From: Acidobacteriota bacterium
GTDB lineage: Bacteria; Acidobacteriota; UBA890; WLXD01
NCBI GenBank assembly: GCA_963666055.2
Contig: CAXWPH010000010.1
Span: 96,001-160,000, forward strand
Direction of reading: 5' to 3'
Length of the DNA: 64,000 bases
Shown: positions 5,204-63,549 of the stretch, piece by piece
Layout: each line of letters begins with the position of its first letter
How positions within the stretch are numbered: the first letter of the stretch is position 1
Translations under genes and position numbers: made by a program
Notes under the pieces: generated by a model
The model's database searches: none
What the model was told of the DNA's origin: nothing
The model's input: the letters and a program-made list of their open reading frames with translations, nothing else

Positions 5204-5725
5204 TCAGCGCTCAAGCTCGAGGATGGCCGGCTTCCATGCCCTCGGGTCCGACGCCACACCGTGTGCCGGGCTCACTACCTCGACTCGATGAGCGACGAAA
5301 CGCACCAGGACGTAGTCGTCACCGCGGTTGCCCTCGACGTAGAACTCGTCCCACTCCGGCTTCCATCGCCGCGCCTTTTCGTCGGCATCGGTGATCACCC
5401 GCGCCACCCCGGTCAGGGTCACGTAGGCGCCGCTCGACGCGTCGAGGTAGTAGAGCGTGGCGCGCGAATCGTTGGCCAGCTCGCGCACCTTGCGGGTCGA
5501 TTTATTGGTGGCCATCCACACTCTGAAGTCGCTGTCAGCTGGAAAGGGGTCCATGGCTCGTGCCTGCGGTGCGCCGTCGGCATCGAGGGTGATCAAGGCG
5601 CAGTACCGTGCCGCCGTCATCACGGCGTGCGCCGCCTCGGCGATACGGTCGGGCTCTAGCAGGCCGTGGTGAAAGCCTGCCCCCAGAAACACCGACGCCA
5701 CCGCCACCACGAGGGCGCGCGTCAC
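5204..5725 (-). CDS. Pyridoxamine 5'-phosphate oxidase-like (general stress protein 26-like) FMN-binding protein
   Basis: LITLD..G.P.AR.M, VWMATNKSTRKVREL..D..ATLYY, YVTLTG. The N-terminus contains an in-frame repeat remnant (AGFHHGLL). Confidence 0.75.
   Translation of the reverse strand: MTRALVVAVASVFLGAGFHHGLLEPDRIAEAAHAVMTAARYCALITLDADGAPQARAMDPFPADSDFRVWMATNKSTRKVRELANDSRATLYYLDASSGAYVTLTGVARVITDADEKARRWKPEWDEFYVEGNRGDDYVLVRFVAHRVEVVSPAHGVASDPRAWKPAILELER
5656..5679 (+). repeat. Miniature remnant of the CTAG/TIR repeat inside a CDS
   Basis: CTAG-CAGGCCGTGGTGAAAG at 5656-5675 is identical to the left end of the 271-bp element. Confidence 0.7.
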
Positions 5726-11544: not shown

Positions 11545-13142
11545 ATGACCGAGGTGGTGTACAGCATCGACGAGCAGCCACGGCATTGGTGGGAGACGCT
11601 GCTCTACGGCTGGCAGCACACGCTCGTCGACATCTCCCCTTTCGTTCTTCCGCTGGCGGTGGCAACAGCCATCGGGCTGGACGATGGTGCGCGTGCGGCG
11701 CTGATCAACTACTCGCTCATCGCCATGGGGCTGGCGACGCTGATTCAGACCACTGTCGGGAACCGACTGCCGATTGTTCAAGGACCGTCGGCGACGCTCA
11801 CCGGCACGCTCGCTCCCCTAGCAGGCCGTGGTGAAAGTGTGGTGGGTCTGGTTATGGCGAGTTGGGGCCAGATGCAAGGCGGCCTGACACAGGCGATGCC
11901 CCGGCCATCGTCCAGGAAGGCCAACGCCGCAAATGGCCCCAAATCGCCGTAACCCTTCGGGCGACAGGGGGTTGCGCGCGTATCCTGCGTCGTTCCTCGT
12001 CAACGATGCGGTAACCATCGCCTCCTCCTCTCTCCTTGCCTCCACTTCGCAAGACCCTGTCGCCAGACCCACCACACTTTCACCACGGCCTGCTGGGTGC
12101 CCAACTCGGACCGGCGGCCATGTGGGGCGCAGCGTTCGTCGGCGCGGCGGTCGAGGCGCTCATCGGCAGTACCGGCGCGCTCGGCGCGCTGCGACGTTTC
12201 TTCCCGCCGGTAGTCTCGGGCGTCGTCGTTGTGACTATTGGGCTGTCGCTCGGATAACTCGCGGTACGCCTGAGCGTCGGCGACGGCAGCGCCATCAACC
12301 TCGGGTTCGCGGTAGCGACCATCCTGTTGGTGGTGGTGTTGCAGGTGGCCGGCCGCCGTGTCGCCGGGGGTCTGCTATCGCGCGCGGCCATATTCGTGTC
12401 GATCTGGGTCGTGGGGCTCGGGGGAGGCAGCCTGCTGGACCGCGTCGACTGGAATCTGGTGGCCACGAAGCCCTGGTTTCAAGCACCCCGAGCGTTCCCG
12501 TTCGGCGGGCCGGGATTCGGATGGGAATTTGGCACTGTAGCGATCGTCGCAGTACTGGCCGGGTACTTCGGATCCATGGTGGAGTCAATCGGCGACTACG
12601 TCGCCACCTGCTCGGTAGTCGACGAGCCGCTTACCAGGCGTCATGTCGACCGTGGCATCGCCGCCGAGGGAGTGGGGTGCCTGCTGGCGCTGTCGGTGGG
12701 CGGGTTACCGTGCACCAGCTATACCCAGAACATCGGCATCATCAAAGTCACCGGTGTCGGCAGTAGGGTCGTCGTGCGCGTAGCGGCGGTCATTCTGCTG
12801 CTTTATGGGCTGTGCCCGAAGTTCGGCGCCCTGCTGGTAGCGTTGCCACGGCCGGTACTCGGCGGCGTGTTCGTGATCGTTTGCGGCCTGATCGCGACCA
12901 CCGGCATCGCCATGCTGGCGAGTGCCCACCAGGACGACGGCGCAACATTGATCGCCGGCATCACGCTGGTGGTGGCGTTGGGACTGCCCACATATGCTCA
13001 GTCAGTGCTCGGTCCCGCCTGGCTCAAGTCGTTGCCGCAGCTGGCCCGGCTCCTGGTGACCAACCCGGTTGTACTGTCGGTGCTGCTGGCGGTATCCCTC
13101 AACGCCGCCTTGGGCGCCATACCGACCGCTCCCGAAGCGTGA
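11545..13142 (+). pseudogene. NCS2 (xanthine/uracil) permease disrupted by the 271-bp repeat and an in-frame TAA
   Basis: GWQH and G.RLPIVQGPS before the insertion. Removing 11818-12092 restores the frame (APLGAQLGPAAMW...FPPVVSG). In-frame TAA at 12255-12257, then ESIGD and SYTQNIG..KVTG NCS2 motifs. Confidence 0.9.
11818..12096 (+). mobile_element. Non-autonomous TIR element (MITE-like), full-length copy 1: 271 bp plus 4-bp target duplication
   Basis: Perfect 30-bp TIRs at 11822-11851 and 12063-12092, flanked by CTAG/CTGG; near-identical copy at 63276-63545; interrupts a gene. Confidence 0.93.
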
Positions 13143-14436: not shown

Positions 14437-14456
14437 CTAGCAGGCCGTGGTGAAAG
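14437..14456 (+). repeat. TIR remnant forming the 3' end and stop codon of the cyclase gene
   Basis: CTAG-CAGGCCGTGGTGAAAG, a 20-nt identity with the element left end. Confidence 0.7.
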
Positions 14457-28081: not shown

Positions 28082-28114
28082 CTAGCAGGCCGTGGTGGAA
28101 GTGTGGCCTGCTAG
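28082..28114 (+). repeat. Miniature 25-bp derivative of the TIR element with CTAG duplication
   Basis: CTAG-CAGGCCGTGGTGGAAGTGTGGCCTG-CTAG. Confidence 0.85.
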
Positions 28115-42424: not shown

Positions 42425-42496
42425 CTAGCAGGCCGTGGTGGAAATGCGGTGGGCCCTGCTAGCAGGCCGTGGTGAAAGTGTGGTGGGCCCTGCTAG
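42425..42496 (+). repeat. Head-to-tail dimer of 30-bp mini-elements separated and flanked by CTAG
   Basis: CTAG-[42429-42458]-CTAG-[42463-42492]-CTAG; each unit matches the element left TIR and ends GGGCCCTG. Confidence 0.88.
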
Positions 42497-43290
42497 GAGC
42501 CGCTTCGGACGTAGATCGTGATAGCGGGCCCGAACAGAGCCACAAACGCCGGGTTCTCGGCGCTGACCATATCGATGATGTTCAGGTCGGGCAAGAAGTT
42601 CAGCCGCCGGCGGATCGGCACGGCCACCTTGAGGTGCTTTTCCAGGTCGCTTTCCGCCTGGCGCCGCTGAGCCGGCTGCGACAGGCCACGGTAAATCACC
42701 ATGAACGAGAATTCGCGGTGCGAGTCAGTGGACCGCAGGCCGGCGCCGTAGAGATAGAGCGCCTCCAGCCACGCGAAGTCGTCCCAGGTGCCATCGAGCG
42801 AGGCCAGCGAGACTGCCACCTCCTGCACGGTCATCTTCCTGATACGACGACGCCTCGGCCTAGGGCGCGCCGCCTCCTGCGCCGTGGGGTCGGCTACTTT
42901 GATGGCAGCTTTCGTCACCGCGGGCTTCTTCACCGCGGGCTTCTTTTTCACCGCAGGCCTCTTCTTCACCGCAGGCCTCTTCTTCACCGCAGGCCTCTTC
43001 TTCACCGCAGGCCTCTTCTTCACCGCAGGCCTCTTCTTCACCGCAGGCCTCTTCTTCACCGCAGGCCTCTTCTTCACCGCAGGCTTCTTCACCGCAGGCT
43101 TCTTTTTCACCGCAGGCTTCTTTTTCACCGCAGGCTTCTTTTTCACCGCAGGCTTCTTCTTCTTCTTCACCGCAGGCTTCTTCTTCACCGCAGGCTTCTT
43201 TTTCACCGCAGGCTTCTTTTTCACCGCAGGCTTCTTCTTCACCGCAGGCTTCTTCTTCGCCACTTTCTTGTTGGCCTTCTTCCTGGCCAT
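42493..43290 (-). CDS. Histone H1-like KKPAV-repeat protein with a C-terminal globular (nucleotidyltransferase-like) domain
   Basis: GAGAGG RBS, MARKK, about 20 KK(K/R)PAV repeats, then a ~110-aa domain containing LEALYLYGAGLR. Confidence 0.8.
   Translation of the reverse strand: MARKKANKKVAKKKPAVKKKPAVKKKPAVKKKPAVKKKPAVKKKKKPAVKKKPAVKKKPAVKKKPAVKKPAVKKRPAVKKRPAVKKRPAVKKRPAVKKRPAVKKRPAVKKRPAVKKKPAVKKPAVTKAAIKVADPTAQEAARPRPRRRRIRKMTVQEVAVSLASLDGTWDDFAWLEALYLYGAGLRSTDSHREFSFMVIYRGLSQPAQRRQAESDLEKHLKVAVPIRRRLNFLPDLNIIDMVSAENPAFVALFGPAITIYVRSGS
42912..43259. repeat. Coding tandem repeat, mostly 18-bp units (TTCACCGCAGGC(T/C)TCTT(C/T))
   Basis: Directly visible contiguous tandem units encoding KK(K/R)PAV on the minus strand. 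Confidence 0.95.
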
Positions 43291-43419
43291 GGGATACCTC
43301 TCGACACTCGGGAGACTGCCATCGGCCATACCCGCTGGCGGCTACGACAGCGTAGAGCCCCGATCGTGCAGGCGTGCGCGACCGAGCCCGGCAAGAAATC
43401 GTGAAACATTACCGGGTTA

Positions 43420-50761: not shown

Positions 50762-52171
50762 ATGTTGCGTCGTCTGTTAGCGCTGGCAATCCTGGCGATG
50801 TGCACGAGCGCATGCGCCGCGCCGCCGGTGCCGTTTTCATTACGCTTCACCGTCTTCCCTACCACTCAAGGCGCCGACATCGTCGTCGAGGTCCACGGTG
50901 GGCGGGACGACCTTGCATGGGTCGGGTTCGCCGCCGGCCCTGGCGCCCCGGCCGATCTGCCCCAGCGCGTTCAATCCGTGCAGGCGCGGACACCGGACGG
51001 GCGCCGACTGCCACAACGACGTCACGGAAGGGCCGGGTACCAGATAGAGCTCGAGGGCTCTAGCTGGCAACTCAGCTACAGCCTCGATCTACGGCCGCGC
51101 CCCGGTGACGACATCTTCTATCGCTCGAGCGTGAGGGAAGACGACTATCTCGTGCTCGTCGGCTCTGACGCCTGGGCGCGTTTCTACACGCAGCCCGACG
51201 CGCTCGCCATGAGTCCGACCGAGAGGCCAGGCGGTGTTGTTCTGGAGGCACGGGCAGCCTTCAACCTCCCAGAGAAGCCTACTGCCTGGAAGGTCGCGAC
51301 AACCGCCAGGGCGCGCAGCGCACGAACCTTCGAGCTATCCGAGCATCCGACCGCGAGCGTCTTCGCACTCGGCCCGTTCGAGATCCGGGACATCGACGAG
51401 GTGCCTGGGCTCCAGCTGGCCGTCCACCCACGCTGGAGCGTGCTCAACGAATCGATCGACGTCCTCATCGGCAAGCTGCTGCTGTCGCACCGGGAACGGC
51501 TGGGATCGCCCGGGAGCACCACGGCCCTGGCGCTGATGAACCCGCTGCCGCAACAACTTGGGCCCACCGGCGGACTACGGACCGCCGGCATGGTGCGCGG
51601 TCGGTCGCTGATCCTGTACGCCGGTGCCAGCCCGTGGGTCGAACCTGACGACCCGCAACTGCGCGAGGCGATGGCCGTCTTCTTAGGGCACGAGCTCTTT
51701 CACCTGTGGGTTCCTTCGGGTGTCCAGGTAACGCGCGAGCTGTCATGGTTGTCGGAAGGCTGGGCAATGCATATGGGACGTCTGGCGGCGGTCGACGTGG
51801 GGTGGCTCAGCCAGCCGGCGAGCATTCAACGCCTTCAGGACGCATACCGCCGCTATCTAGATATCGGAGGCTATCGGGCAGGCAGCCTGCCAGAGGCCAG
51901 CATGGGCAGCGAGAGCCGGCGCGATCTGCTGTATCTGCGGGGCGAGCTGGTCTTCCGTCTGCTCGAGCGACAATGGGCACTGACCAACAGCGGCAACTTC
52001 GAAGCGGCGCTTTGGCTCGCCTTGGCAGATGCTTACGACGGCCGCACGCCGCTCGACGCCGAGAGCGTTCGGTCAGCACTCGCATCGTTGGTCGATCGCG
52101 GCACCGTTCGGCGCTACGTCGAGGGCAGGTCGCCACTGACACCCTCGGCGCTGGGCCTACGCCGACGATAA
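50762..52171 (+). CDS. Putative lipoprotein gluzincin-like (M61/M1-related) metallopeptidase
   Basis: Lipobox-like TSAC, HELFHLW, WLSEG, Y.RG motifs. Confidence 0.65.
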
Positions 52172-52191
52172 TTCGCCGGCGGCCTCGAGCC

Positions 52192-52758
52192 ATGGCGCTA
52201 GCGATAGTCCTGCTGGCGGCCAACCTAACCAGTGCCTGCACGCCGATCCCGGCGCCAGATCGTAGCCAGAGCGACTCACCGCGCATGCCCCCCATACGGC
52301 GTGGTGATTTTCTTCCCGACTTCGCATTCGTCGACACCGATGGCGCCACAGTCCGCGCCGCGGATCTCCGTGATGCGGTCGCCGTGCTCACATTCGCAGC
52401 GCCCGGGGCACCCTTCGCCAACGAGCTCCTGGATCGCCTCGCAACCGTCGACCTACGACTGGAAAACAGCCCGCGGGCCACCCGATTCGTTGTTTTCGCC
52501 ATCGGCTCAGATGCGCTGAGCGCCGCGGCGCTCCGCGCTGGACGCCCGTCGGACTGGCTGGTGCTCACCGGGCCATCAGCCCAGATTATCGACTTCGCGA
52601 CCCGCTTCGGAGTCATGACCTGGACGGAGGACGATGGTCCCGCCCATACCCTGCGCGTTGCGGTCGCCGGGCCATCCGGTCGAATCACCGAATTGCTCGA
52701 GGGTCTCAGCCCCTGGTCTGTCGAGGATCTGCTGGCGGCGGTGGCCGCCGCCGACTGA
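52192..52758 (+). CDS. SCO/SenC-like thioredoxin-fold lipoprotein lacking CxxxC
   Basis: Lipobox LTSAC, LPDF.F.D.DG......DL, W..LTG....I..FA..FGV, HT....V.GP.G.I. Confidence 0.6.
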   Translation: MALAIVLLAANLTSACTPIPAPDRSQSDSPRMPPIRRGDFLPDFAFVDTDGATVRAADLRDAVAVLTFAAPGAPFANELLDRLATVDLRLENSPRATRFVVFAIGSDALSAAALRAGRPSDWLVLTGPSAQIIDFATRFGVMTWTEDDGPAHTLRVAVAGPSGRITELLEGLSPWSVEDLLAAVAAAD

Positions 52759-52833
52759 AGAGTGCTCCCGTCGCGCCTGGCATCGGCACCCATTTCGTCA
52801 CCACGATATGGAGCGATTATCTGTTACAGGCCA

Positions 52834-52984
52834 CTAGCAGGCCGTGGTGAAAGTGTGGTGGGTCTGGCAAGTAGGTATTGCGGGGGAGGGCGAGAAGCGC
52901 CGACGAGGCGATGCAGGAACATCGTTGAGGAGGTGCGACGCGGCCGTCGCCCGTAAGACCTACTTGCCCGGAGGGTTACGCCGC
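52834..52984 (+). mobile_element. Divergent single-arm copy of the TIR element
   Basis: CTAG plus an identical 30-bp TIR (52838-52867), then a module homologous to the reverse complement of the right arm of the full copies. Confidence 0.85.
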
Positions 52985-52993
52985 ATTACTCAT

Positions 52994-54826
52994 CTACACC
53001 GAGACAATGTCGGCGGCTTCAGCCGGGCCTGTATCGATCGTGCTGTCGTACTGCAACCGGTACAAGCAAGCGTAGATGCCGTCCATAGACAGCAGCTCCT
53101 CGTGTGTGCCCTGCTCGCGCACCTCGCCATGGTGCAGCACCACGATGCGGTCTACCTCACGTATGGTCGACAGTCGGTGCGCCACGATCAGCGCCGTGCG
53201 ATCGGCCACCAGGTTGTGCAGCGCCCGCTGGATGCGCGACTCGGTCTCTGAATCAACACTGGAGGTGGCTTCGTCGAGCACCAGCACCGCCGGATCCGAC
53301 GCCAGCGCTCGAGCGAACGCCAGGAGCTGTCGCTCGCCGAACGACAGGTTTGCGCCGCGCTCGCCCAGGGGTGTCTCGAGACGCTCAGGGAGCTCGTTGA
53401 TAAAGTCGGTCGCTTCGACGAGGCTGGCGGCTCGCTCAATCGCGTCGTCTTCGACGTGCTCCGATCCCAGGCCTATGTTGGCGCCGATCGTGTCTGTAAA
53501 CAGGAACACGTCCTGCGGAACGGTACCGAAGAATCGGCGTAGAGATCCGAGCTCGAACTCGCGAGCATCCACCCCGTCGATGGTGACCCGCCCTTGCTGC
53601 GGCTCATACAGGCGTTGCAACACTTTGACCACCGACGACTTGCCGGCGCCGGTCGCGCCGACAAGCGCTACCTTTTCGCCACGGCGCAAACTCAGGTCTA
53701 TTCCCTTGAGCACCGGTTGCCCCTCGCCCGCCGTGTCTTCGTAGGCGAAGGTCAGGTTCTCGAGACGGATCTCGTCTTCAAACGAATCGAGCGTTGGCGC
53801 ATCGACGACGCTGGCAATCGTCACGGGCTCGTCGAGAAGGGCGAAGATCTTGCCGGTCGATGCGGCCGCACGCTGCAATGTGTCGTACTTGTCGGAGAGA
53901 TCCTCGAGCGGCATATAGAAGCGGCGCAGGTACTCGAGGAACTGCACCAGCAACCCCACCGTTACCGTGCCGCCGATGATCCCGAACCCTCCGTAAACAA
54001 GCACCAGCGCGGTGGCAACGGTTGTTGCGGCCTGAACCGATGCCGACAGAAACGACGAGTAGCGGACCCCGCTCAGATCGATACGCAGAAGATCATCGCG
54101 CAACGCCCGGAACTCGTCGCGCTTGCGCTCCTGCTGACCGAACACCTGAATCACTCCCATCCCGGTCAATGATTCCTGCAGGAAGGCATTGAGGCGCGCG
54201 ACGAGGGTTCGCGAACGATCGTAGGCGTCTCTCAGTCGGACCCGCACTGCTGCAAGGATGGCCACCAGAAACGGCAAGACGACAAACGACGCCAGCGTCA
54301 GGCGCCAATCGATCCACGCCATCGCCGCAACGATGCCGACCAGCGTCACCAGGTCGCGCGCCATCGCCACGATTCCCTGTGACATGAGCTCGTTGAGCGT
54401 TTCGACGTCGCTGGTGACTCGCGTCATCACCTGACCAATCGGATTGCGATCGAAGAACGACATCGAGAGTCGCTGCAGGTGGCGGAACGTCGCCATCCGC
54501 AGGTCGTGCATCATGCGCTGGCCGGCCAACTGCATCAGATACAGCTGGATGAAACGCATCGCCATCTCGCCTACTTGGATGGCCAGGAACACCAGGATGA
54601 GCGTCCAGAGGCCGCCGAGGGCAGACGCGTCTCCCGTCGCTGCCGGCGTCACGTGGCGATCGATTGCCAGTCGCAGCAGGTAGGGAGCTGCAAGCTGCGC
54701 CGCGGCGAGCAAGGGAAGCGTCAGGCTGGCAAGCACAAGCAGACCGGCGTGCTGCTGAACGTATGGTCGCAGCCGCTTCAGAATGCGCAGATCGCGACTT
54801 CGACGAGCTTCTTGCCCGGCGTCCAA
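52994..54826 (-). CDS. ABC exporter subunit (TMD+NBD, MdlB-like)
   Basis: GATGAGKS, LSFGERQ, LVLDEATS, IVAHRLST. Confidence 0.95.
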   Translation of the reverse strand: MDAGQEARRSRDLRILKRLRPYVQQHAGLLVLASLTLPLLAAAQLAAPYLLRLAIDRHVTPAATGDASALGGLWTLILVFLAIQVGEMAMRFIQLYLMQLAGQRMMHDLRMATFRHLQRLSMSFFDRNPIGQVMTRVTSDVETLNELMSQGIVAMARDLVTLVGIVAAMAWIDWRLTLASFVVLPFLVAILAAVRVRLRDAYDRSRTLVARLNAFLQESLTGMGVIQVFGQQERKRDEFRALRDDLLRIDLSGVRYSSFLSASVQAATTVATALVLVYGGFGIIGGTVTVGLLVQFLEYLRRFYMPLEDLSDKYDTLQRAAASTGKIFALLDEPVTIASVVDAPTLDSFEDEIRLENLTFAYEDTAGEGQPVLKGIDLSLRRGEKVALVGATGAGKSSVVKVLQRLYEPQQGRVTIDGVDAREFELGSLRRFFGTVPQDVFLFTDTIGANIGLGSEHVEDDAIERAASLVEATDFINELPERLETPLGERGANLSFGERQLLAFARALASDPAVLVLDEATSSVDSETESRIQRALHNLVADRTALIVAHRLSTIREVDRIVVLHHGEVREQGTHEELLSMDGIYACLYRLQYDSTIDTGPAEAADIVSV

Positions 54827-62663: not shown

Positions 62664-62707
62664 CCTTGATCGGCTGGCAGATCGCTAGAAATGCTGAATG
62701 CCTAACG

Positions 62708-62958
62708 TTAGCGCCTGCCCCTCTTCTTGGCGGCGCTTCTTGCTTGGTCACCTTCTTCTTGGCGGCCTTCTTCTTGGTCACCTTCTTCTTGGCGGCCTTC
62801 TTCTTGGTCACCTTCTTCTTGGCGGCCTTCTTCTTGGTCACCTTCTTCTTGGCGGCCTTCTTCTTGGTCGCCTTCTTCTTGGTCGCCTTCTTCTTGGCGG
62901 CTCTCTTCTTGGTCGCCTTTTTCCGAGTTGGCTTCTTCGTCTTCTTCTTCGCAGCCAC
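62708..62958 (-). CDS. Small histone H1-like Lys/Ala-rich DNA-binding protein with an apparent 1-nt frameshift near 62743
   Basis: Purine-rich RBS, GTG-AAKKKTKK, repeated KKKAA/KKKVT units; the adjacent frame ends ARSAAKKRGRR-TAA just before the terminator. Confidence 0.75.
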
Positions 62959-63271
62959 CCCTATACCCCCTTCTTGATGCCCCCAAGAGATCGCGGTGTC
63001 CAGAATGGAACCGCCGTGACCGAAATTATGTTCCACGTACTCAAGAGGTGTAAGTCGACACAACGAATTCCTGCGCAAAAAAAACACGCCGCTCGAAACG
63101 CGACTCGCGTCATTTGATCGCCTTCCGAACAACATTTCGACACCGCAAGAAAGAGCAGCGCCGCACGCAGCTTCCGGTTTCATTGAAAGCTGTCTTACCG
63201 GGTATCGCCTTGCCGCGGCGAGGGCCGAGGTGGAGGTTGCCAAGAAGCGCGCCGAAGAAGCGCGCCGATCT

Positions 63272-63549
63272 CTAGCAGGCCGTGGTAAAAATGTGGTGGG
63301 TCTGGTTACGGCGAGTTGGGGTCAGATGCAAGGCGGCCTGACACAGACGATGCCCTGCCATCGTCGAGGAAGGCCAACGCTGCAGATAGCCCCAAATCGC
63401 CGTAACCCTCCGGGCGAAAGGGGGTTGCGCGCGTATGCTGCGTCGTTCCTCGTCAACGATGGCGTAACCATCGCCTCCTCCTCTCTCCTTACCTCCACTT
63501 CGCAAGTCCCTGTCGCCAGACCCACCACACTTTCACCACGGCCTACTAG
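63272..63549 (+). mobile_element. Non-autonomous TIR element, full-length copy 2: 270 bp with a perfect CTAG duplication
   Basis: CTAG at 63272-63275 and 63546-63549; TIRs with a few mismatches; colinear with 11822-12092. Confidence 0.93.

Follow-up and report, generated by a model that had tools for sequence, protein, structure and literature searches.

The bacterial repeats closest to the one analysed here are the type II MITEs, a class whose definition follows PMC10969869 and of which MITEPsy1 is an IS5-related member that inserts at CTAG or YTAA (PMC3189936), as far as the available text of the two sources goes. MITE interiors are usually regarded as leftover filler, and how MITEs reach hundreds of copies on borrowed transposases is an open question. 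In the available portion of a review, the MITE cores of Neisseria, E. coli and Anabaena are described as having no common sequence or motifs (PMC3184786). The plant MITE mPing, the internal regions of which promote transposition, provides a precedent for an interior that raises mobility; unlike the family described below, mPing is eukaryotic and belongs with one transposase family, and a shared fold is absent from the available part of its account (PMC9921582). Other repeats relevant to the comparison are the ERIC/IRU repeat of Enterobacterales, about 127 bp long and TA-flanked according to the accessible text of PMC10969869 and PMC3184786, and the Geobacter metallireducens multicopy family Gmet_R1001-R1024, unexplained repeats that the accessible text of PMC2700814 calls 'predicted short RNA elements'. 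The literature searched, mostly non-subscription, contains no account of one structured core common to MITEs of different IS families, and the supplements of PMC3543383, PMC2996986 and a MITE census (bioRxiv 2024.01.18.576219), sources available in part, may contain family members.

The family described here resembles type II MITEs such as MITEPsy1 in that it is non-coding, has ends that match autonomous IS, prefers CTAG, reaches a high copy number, occupies intergenic and stop-codon sites and forms a long stem-loop. It differs from them in that a single structured core, set at a fixed spacing behind the end, is common to unrelated IS families and phyla. It is well supported that these repeats make up a superfamily with an unusual property, namely a conserved, strand-specific folded cargo that is carried across transposase families and phyla.

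The window is the whole stretch of DNA that was analysed, 64,000 nucleotides of the genome G000, which is 95.7% complete. Its locus at 52834..52984 consists of CTAG, a 17-bp end of type T1, an 11-nt spacer, a 103-nt hairpin arm and an 11-letter stub of a partner arm (Table 1). The copy is a truncated dimer without a right end, because the letters at 52974-52984 belong to the base of a partner arm that is otherwise missing, and comparison with relatives showed that native sequence resumes after this stub. A decayed right terminal repeat at 52985-53000 was ruled out, since those letters are native in genome G002, and the copy itself thus lacks one of the two terminal repeats of a type II MITE. 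Two substitutions in the most conserved loop of the family (52892-52896) indicate that the copy is decaying. A minus-strand remnant at 52769-52833, missed in the original prediction, adjoins it back to back at the same CTAG, and both remnants together occupy the gap between two convergent genes. The insert is missing from the orthologous site in all four same-genus genomes aligned (five orthologous loci were fetched). An assembly artefact is excluded because public contigs that span 52300-52843 and 52841-53500 match with zero differing letters (runs X1 and X2). As a locus, the 52834 stretch is an ordinary one, a truncated and decaying copy of a CTAG-flanked MITE.

Table 1. Features of the 52834 locus, its neighbours and the other copies of the family in the window.
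Feature	Position	Strand	Remark	Basis
CTAG target site	52834..52837	none	common to both back-to-back remnants; TA or CTAG duplication	sequence, flank census
Terminal repeat, type T1, 17 bp	52838..52854	+	same as left end of IS1182-like element in G011	
Sub-terminal spacer	52855..52865	+	absent from autonomous IS	
Hairpin arm, B' subfamily	52866..52968	+		
Outer stem of arm	52866-52891 with 52943-52968	+		
Loop 1 of arm	52892-52896 and 52937-52942	+	first part decayed in this copy	
Inner stem of arm	52897-52901 with 52932-52936	+		
Loop 2, purine-rich, and apical stem	apical stem 52907-52913 with 52920-52926	+		
Junction CCC-GGA-GGG	52967..52975	+	joins the two arms of a dimer	
Partner (A') arm stub	52974..52984	+	element ends here without right terminal repeat	comparison with full G007 dimers
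Second truncated element	52769..52833	-	IS630-type end (T3) and first half of A arm	
Left neighbour gene	51706..52758	+	convergent; without NCBIfam match	
Right neighbour gene, MsbA-like ABC transporter	52994..54826	-	convergent	
Full T1 dimer, 271 bp	11818..12096	A arm +, B arm -	splits xanthine/uracil permease gene	
Full T1 dimer, 270 bp	63272..63549		intergenic	
Lone T1 end	5656..5675	+		
Lone T1 end	14437..14456	+		
Collapsed T1 remnant	28082..28114	+	without core	
Two tandem collapsed T1 remnants	42425..42496	+	without core	

Ten clear matches to the 16-letter end motif were found in the window, where the chance expectation is 0.66 for all 13 matches at three mismatches. The covariance model R1 detects exactly five arms, at 70-107 bits, and gives antisense readings of 21-22 bits; since R1 includes the 52834 arm and near relatives, this result supports the arm count and not its significance. 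No Rfam family reached the gathering threshold in the window or in 14 diverse loci, and a hairpin match in the window with an E value of 6.9 was dismissed as chance. The 11818 dimer adds 275 bp, out of frame, to the permease gene at 11545-13142. The lone and collapsed T1 ends are likely to be deletion scars of full elements. Two tandem arrays within long open frames, at 42870-43308 (18-nt units) and 62698-62980 (15-nt units), are probably low-complexity protein repeats.

In G000 as a whole, the T1 end has 380 matches, 320 of them directly after CTAG. An iterated profile gave 267 near-full arms, which belong to end types T1 (208), T3 (26), T2 (22), T4 (3) and T5 (1), with seven unassigned, and the offset at which the arm starts is identical behind each end type. 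Full elements, 269-272 bp long, are composed of two head-to-head arms on opposite strands. There are 111 T1 pairs under 450 bp, mostly of this length, and they show the terminal inverted repeats and short non-coding core of a type II MITE. CTAG is present on both sides in 83 of 105 T1 pairs, and for the remainder a duplication of TA is a better fit than one of 4 bp, though they may have no duplication at all. With genes called by a home-made procedure, 61 of the 129 paired elements occupy a stop codon, and a single one, the 11818 dimer, lies inside a gene, compared with 2755 of 5391 CTAG sites; a self-removing intron-like element is ruled out by this intolerance of coding regions. Other copies are found within operons, for example gyrB-gyrA, rpoB-rpoC and murF-mraY. 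Past mobility is evident from the empty orthologous sites and the split permease gene. In a census that started from the ends, the core was present in 104 of 111 T1 pairs, 9 of 11 T2, 10 of 10 T3 and 2 of 4 T4, and the core-less pairs, including seven of T1, are each different from the others. Some elements are chimeric, pairing a T1 end with a T3 end at the opposite side, and a T2 element has inserted into the CTAG within the loop of an A arm (L065:1270-1571 and G000:C15:682752-683156); such cases are a likely route for end swapping. An unrelated IS5 element with TTAA flanks and no core occurs in eight near-identical copies (G000:C2:350101 and seven other places).

The ends can be attributed to different transposase families. 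T1 equals the 17-bp terminus of an IS1182-like element of 1497 bp, present in four copies in G011, with a protein whose best family is IS1182, at a score below the cut-off; identity with this element is limited to the 17 bp, with none further inward, so that only the ends of the autonomous IS are shared. The MITE ends of another genome, G160, match an IS1182 of the same genome above the cut-off. The T2 end is similar to those of IS5 elements in G007 (NF033581, above the cut-off). For T3, T4 and related ends the counterpart is IS630, whose ends in G007 and G000 are similar (above the cut-off). Ends starting with GTACT, which also carry the core, resemble those of an IS701 from another genome and probably belong to that family. 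In the 95.7% complete genome G000 there is one IS630 and no transposase for T1 or T2, so the helper transposase is deduced from relatives. A core inside an autonomous IS was found in none of 60 transposase loci searched by profile and none of 49 searched by model (the loci partly overlap), and strong core matches near IS are MITEs inserted alongside, in many cases sharing one CTAG with the IS. The distance between the end and loop 1 is 52-56 nt for 43 of 45 end variants, which are not independent of each other, and this applies to one-arm and two-arm forms alike. To judge from sequence comparison, the same core recurs behind the ends of at least three transposase families and in many bacterial phyla. 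The original prediction of distinct subfamilies sharing one TIR was thus right but too narrow, one core being common to unrelated TIRs as well. G007 contains no fewer than 150 copies of IS5 type, together with 43 matches to IS630, and IS and MITEs crowd shared CTAG sites.

Selection for structure had been proposed from two stems of the window, that of the 52834 arm at 52866-52968 and that of copy 1. A letter-by-letter comparison placed both stems as described and reproduced the four pairs that differ on both sides and the single G-T wobble; both stems also retain a mismatch near stem positions 11-12. The CGATG/CATCGT stem is indeed kept in all five arms of the window, and the junction CCGRAGGGTTACG in all three elements. 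The region 52834-53000 folds far better than shuffles (RNA z -6.75), and the DNA fold z of the arm is -6.14 on the plus strand and -3.74 on the minus strand. Alignment A1 comprises the 52834 arm and 37 of 45 non-redundant arms, and the omission of eight near-duplicate or visibly decayed arms favours pairing somewhat; 89.1% of its 1400 cells pair, against 34-48% in slid-partner controls, and 28 of 37 pairs show both-sided change. In an alignment of the extended class, 92.6% of cells pair and 19 of 27 pairs change on both sides, so the covariation holds beyond the two stems from which it was proposed.

Complementarity of this kind could also arise with no selection at all, if template switching kept the inverted repeats complementary and the shared loops reflected common descent or gene conversion. 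Correction events are visible, in that perfect and mismatched versions of one stem coexist in G000 and the 3' stem of the 52834 copy is the complement of the 5' stem in G007; template switching does occur and probably drives stem turnover, and the even decay of copies reported below would be in line with an absence of selection. However, template switching wipes out mismatches and yields only Watson-Crick pairs, whereas outer-stem mismatches on the motif strand comprise 84 G-T and 26 A-C, by symmetric scoring, in 91 non-redundant and not independent arms (from 391 motif matches, 375 of them with a stem). Private mutations in G000 comprise 13 G-T and 11 A-C, which differs from 84:26 at a Fisher p of 0.04. 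Asymmetric loop letters persist while the stems are saturated, and the apical stem covaries in other phyla. The pair that closes loop 1 is C·A in 52, A·G in 34 and another pair in 5 of the 91 arms, for which the search pattern permitted only A or G at the second site, motif-found sets carrying the motif by construction. As sheared pairs, C·A and A·G can replace one another. A tree from which those columns were left out places 16 and 15 single changes at the two sites and 17 joint ones (sign test p about 0.03; of 7 independent pairs, 5-6 are in agreement and none conflict), with the qualification that the tree is based on about 105 columns and that block exchange between arms could mimic joint change. 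Taken with the conserved loop letters and the one-strand excess of G-T over A-C, this coupling shows that template switching is not the full explanation. With this and the covariation in the larger alignments, the predicted purifying selection on a single-strand fold withstands both of the refutations that were named with it. The reading without selection is largely refuted, and we consider it very improbable.

Selection on a strand-specific, single-strand fold is well supported by comparative sequence evidence. By RNA energies the more stable strand is the motif strand in 78 of 91 arms, and by DNA energies in 56 of 91. The junction has the letters C-GNA-G or their complement in 39 of 63 arms that have a junction, and 28 of the 91 arms are without one. 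On one strand these letters read as a cUNCGg RNA loop. On the other strand they read as a DNA mini-hairpin loop, in the available text of PMC13037366. With loop readings for both strands, the junction does not decide between DNA and RNA. In the outer stem of B-type arms, some 14-16 pairs down from loop 1, a C·C or T·C mismatch recurs across many subfamilies and is corrected in some copies. To our knowledge, readings of the core as an IHF site, kink-turn, SRP loop, attC or 6S-like RNA do not fit.

The stage at which selection acts was addressed with private mutations in 80 of the 81 T1 dimers of G000, one divergent copy having been dropped. Their frequency per site is 0.85% in the terminal repeat, 0.76% in the outer stem, 0.94% in loop 1, 0.90% in loop 2, 0.70% in the variable loops and 0.42% in the apical stem (p 0.06). 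Because these mutations fall evenly, the core behaves like the terminal repeat, being kept between lineages and decaying after insertion. The evenness of new mutations, together with the two lost loop letters of the 52834 copy, points to selection at the copying step rather than on each copy, and it is most likely that selection acts when elements are copied. The purifying selection of the original prediction is thus supported for the lineage but not for the 52834 copy itself.

The best overall explanation, to which we give about an even chance on comparative grounds, is a non-autonomous element moved in trans, whose folded interior raises its chance of being copied whatever the end family. 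A DDE transposase matching the ends would move the element in trans, and the interior module, with its predicted one-strand fold, would raise the chance of copying whichever transposase family supplies the ends. The fold may form in single-stranded DNA, at a fork, in a cruciform or in a transposition intermediate, rather than in RNA, and the two purine-rich loops may be the binding site of a putative host protein, some 54 bp away from the cut end; both of these steps are more weakly indicated than the preceding ones. Such a loop-bound protein would favour transposase loading or synapsis in trans. Stem sequences would turn over by template switching while selection keeps the loops and the register, and with one arm per strand each end would have its own module. 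The recurrence of the same hairpin behind the ends of different transposase families across phyla makes it likely that the hairpin helps copying. The core offers a mutable handle in the form of two loops, a covarying non-canonical pair and a fixed spacing, and if the module raises mobility regardless of the ends, it may be of use in transposon tool design.

A role at the RNA level is suggested by the orientation of T1 dimers. Between co-oriented genes, transcription meets the B arm first in 39 cases and the A arm first in 7, while at the stops of convergent pairs the arm order is 7:7, so the host does sense the orientation. The core might accordingly be an RNA module read by a host factor, such that read-through transcripts tolerate the insertion, by way of stability, processing or reduced polarity, and carriers persist and spread, with transposition being independent of the core. 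The bias is limited to dimers with a co-oriented downstream gene, on both inferred replication strands, and the 61 of 129 paired elements on stop codons, the copies in operons, the clearer preference of RNA energies for the motif strand and the existence of cores without ends are all in keeping with such a module. A further precedent is that ERIC copies affect mRNA decay via RNase E, according to the available text of PMC10969869 and PMC3184786. Against it, the loops of inserted copies are unprotected (33 mutations at 45 loop sites, no deficit), single arms are antisense as often as sense (sense to antisense 16:18, and 7:6 for B arms), tRNA-adjacent cores are antisense, and a fixed distance to the cut end is unexpected for a transcript module. 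We regard this RNA reading as possible though doubtful; if the core is only such a tolerance signal, it would still indicate that a widely conserved host factor reads an RNA motif not recognised so far. A mechanism that acts in cis at the copying step is the most likely one, with RNA-based tolerance next. Harm from an antisense B arm, considered as the cause of the orientation bias, is unsupported by the 7:6 ratio of single B arms. A replication-strand bias was likewise rejected: 55 of 80 dimers fit by raw skew, but the ratio is 21:13 (p 0.23) without co-oriented pairs.

The hairpin also recalls group 2 REP/REPIN sequences and their TnpAREP (RAYT), with which it shares, in the available text of PMC8266576, a strand-specific imperfect hairpin, inverted doublets and, less clearly, an AA/GC irregularity. 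The core might thus be a present or former substrate of an HUH (Y1/Y2) nuclease, REP-like and self-spreading, and merely captured by DDE ends. In loop 1, AA faces GC as in the E. coli REP bulge that TnpAREP needs (PMC8266576, available in part), with an extra variable base and further mismatches; the head-to-head doublets resemble REPINs, end-less cores exist, and locus L188 has a core on the 5' side of an IS91-type gene. In contrast to REP/REPIN, however, the family is about three times longer and has DDE-type ends, and neither GTAG nor CGTC was found at the foot of the hairpin, where the letters vary by end type. A RAYT (Y1) gene or Y1_Tnp match was found in none of five carrier genomes, and four close genomes lack a full Y2_Tnp, with a single match that is weak and partial. 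At the further IS91-type loci that were searched, many of them cut short, the matching place has no core, and no family recurs among 115 neighbouring proteins. An origin in an HUH substrate is accordingly improbable. An IS91/ISCR end was rejected for want of a fixed place beside the Y2 transposase gene, the arrangement being seen at one locus only. Copying through RNA, in which a reverse transcriptase would recognise the fold, the cDNA would snap back and a DDE transposase would integrate it, could account for the fast stem turnover, the RNA-like non-canonical pair and a gain of copies by cut-and-paste ends; no reverse transcriptase was found among the 115 neighbours, the single full copy that was scanned has no promoter-like site, and this route has very little likelihood.

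The wider search for the core was run with a pattern and with R1. A strict core pattern was present in 16 of 61 relatives, with zero matches in the reversed control, and a pattern scan covering 6 of the 64 parts of a species collection yielded 115 stretches, which corresponds to an estimate of about 1300 overall. R1 confirmed 73 of 80 tested pattern stretches and matched 43 of 141 genomes of the phylum, a count that includes G000 and the unpublished G071, on which no conclusion depends. By record title, the 91 non-redundant arms come from Acidobacteriota (22), Omnitrophota (10), Planctomycetota (7), Myxococcota (4) and Pseudomonadota (2), with four other phyla represented once each, which may be binning errors, and 42 arms without a phylum name, making nine named phyla in total. 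The named carriers of T1-ended dimers are Acidobacteriota. Inspection of adjacent protein genes, proposed as a check in the original prediction, revealed no family that recurs in the 115 proteins scanned, out of 120 picked. A BLAST comparison of a full copy with plasmids and phages gave zero matches, and 56 stretches of viral contigs that fit a loose pattern were rejected on inspection, none being hairpin-like.

Four repeats that we take to be ERIC, by their size, flanks, Enterobacterales spread and ERIC-PCR primer sites, their records being without the label, carry the letters of loop 1, and their apical stem begins with G-T and C-G, similar to the core. Two are intergenic in E. coli K-12, and those of Citrobacter and Rahnella come from plasmid records. 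Model R2, built from 20 extended cores of the phylum (1 of 21 omitted for length) with zero enterobacterial rows, ranks the four first to fourth, weakly but on the expected strand, in 10.9 kb made up of loci chosen because they hold ERIC-like repeats, with E values of 6e-6 to 4e-3 by rough calibration; the next match there has 13 bits. R2 matches three of the five window arms at E below 0.001, and R1 gave no significant result on the E. coli pair (one at 9.9 bits, the other not listed). The ERIC-like repeats differ from the core family in being shorter, single hairpins with a different middle and with loop 1 about 25 nt from the end, compared with 54. Conversely, the family is a 270-bp dimer with IS1182-like ends and does not have the ERIC format of a single hairpin of about 127 bp with ERIC terminal repeats. 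Homology between the core family and the ERIC-like repeats is plausible from these sequence similarities.

A broader and tentative proposal, which we think may be correct although the balance is against it, is that there is one ancient folded module, of which the ERIC centre is one form, and that it is a portable helper capturable by any DDE ends; a putative conserved host protein would bind its purine-rich loops, in single-stranded DNA or RNA, and so let tiny elements win transposase in trans. If the ERIC link is true, the question could be addressed in laboratory E. coli, and there would be a cause for the conservation of the ERIC centre, which has long gone unexplained; if the portable-helper proposal is true, bacterial transposition would have a structured, family-independent cis-element in common.

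The Gmet_R1001-R1024 repeats, compared by eye, match the extended core class, with an apical palindrome of the same type and, in many rows when the opposite strand is read, the loop letters CAAGG and AACGC. The available text of their account contains no link to IS ends, covariation test or cross-phylum scope (PMC2700814). The extended class, which has an extra middle helix, is abundant in G014, G013, G011, G019 and G129, with 121 pattern matches in G014 and one in G000. Solo intergenic cores without recognisable terminal repeats occur at L405, L408, L429 and L430. Several cores without terminal repeats lie directly behind tRNA or tmRNA genes, in antisense; these are palindromes of about 165 bp that have the same core, no IS-type ends and an antisense motif strand, directly 3' of the gene (L053/L418, L054/L420, L424 at tRNA-Asp, L059 at tRNA-Ala and L325 at tmRNA), and they are possibly a tRNA-targeting subclass.
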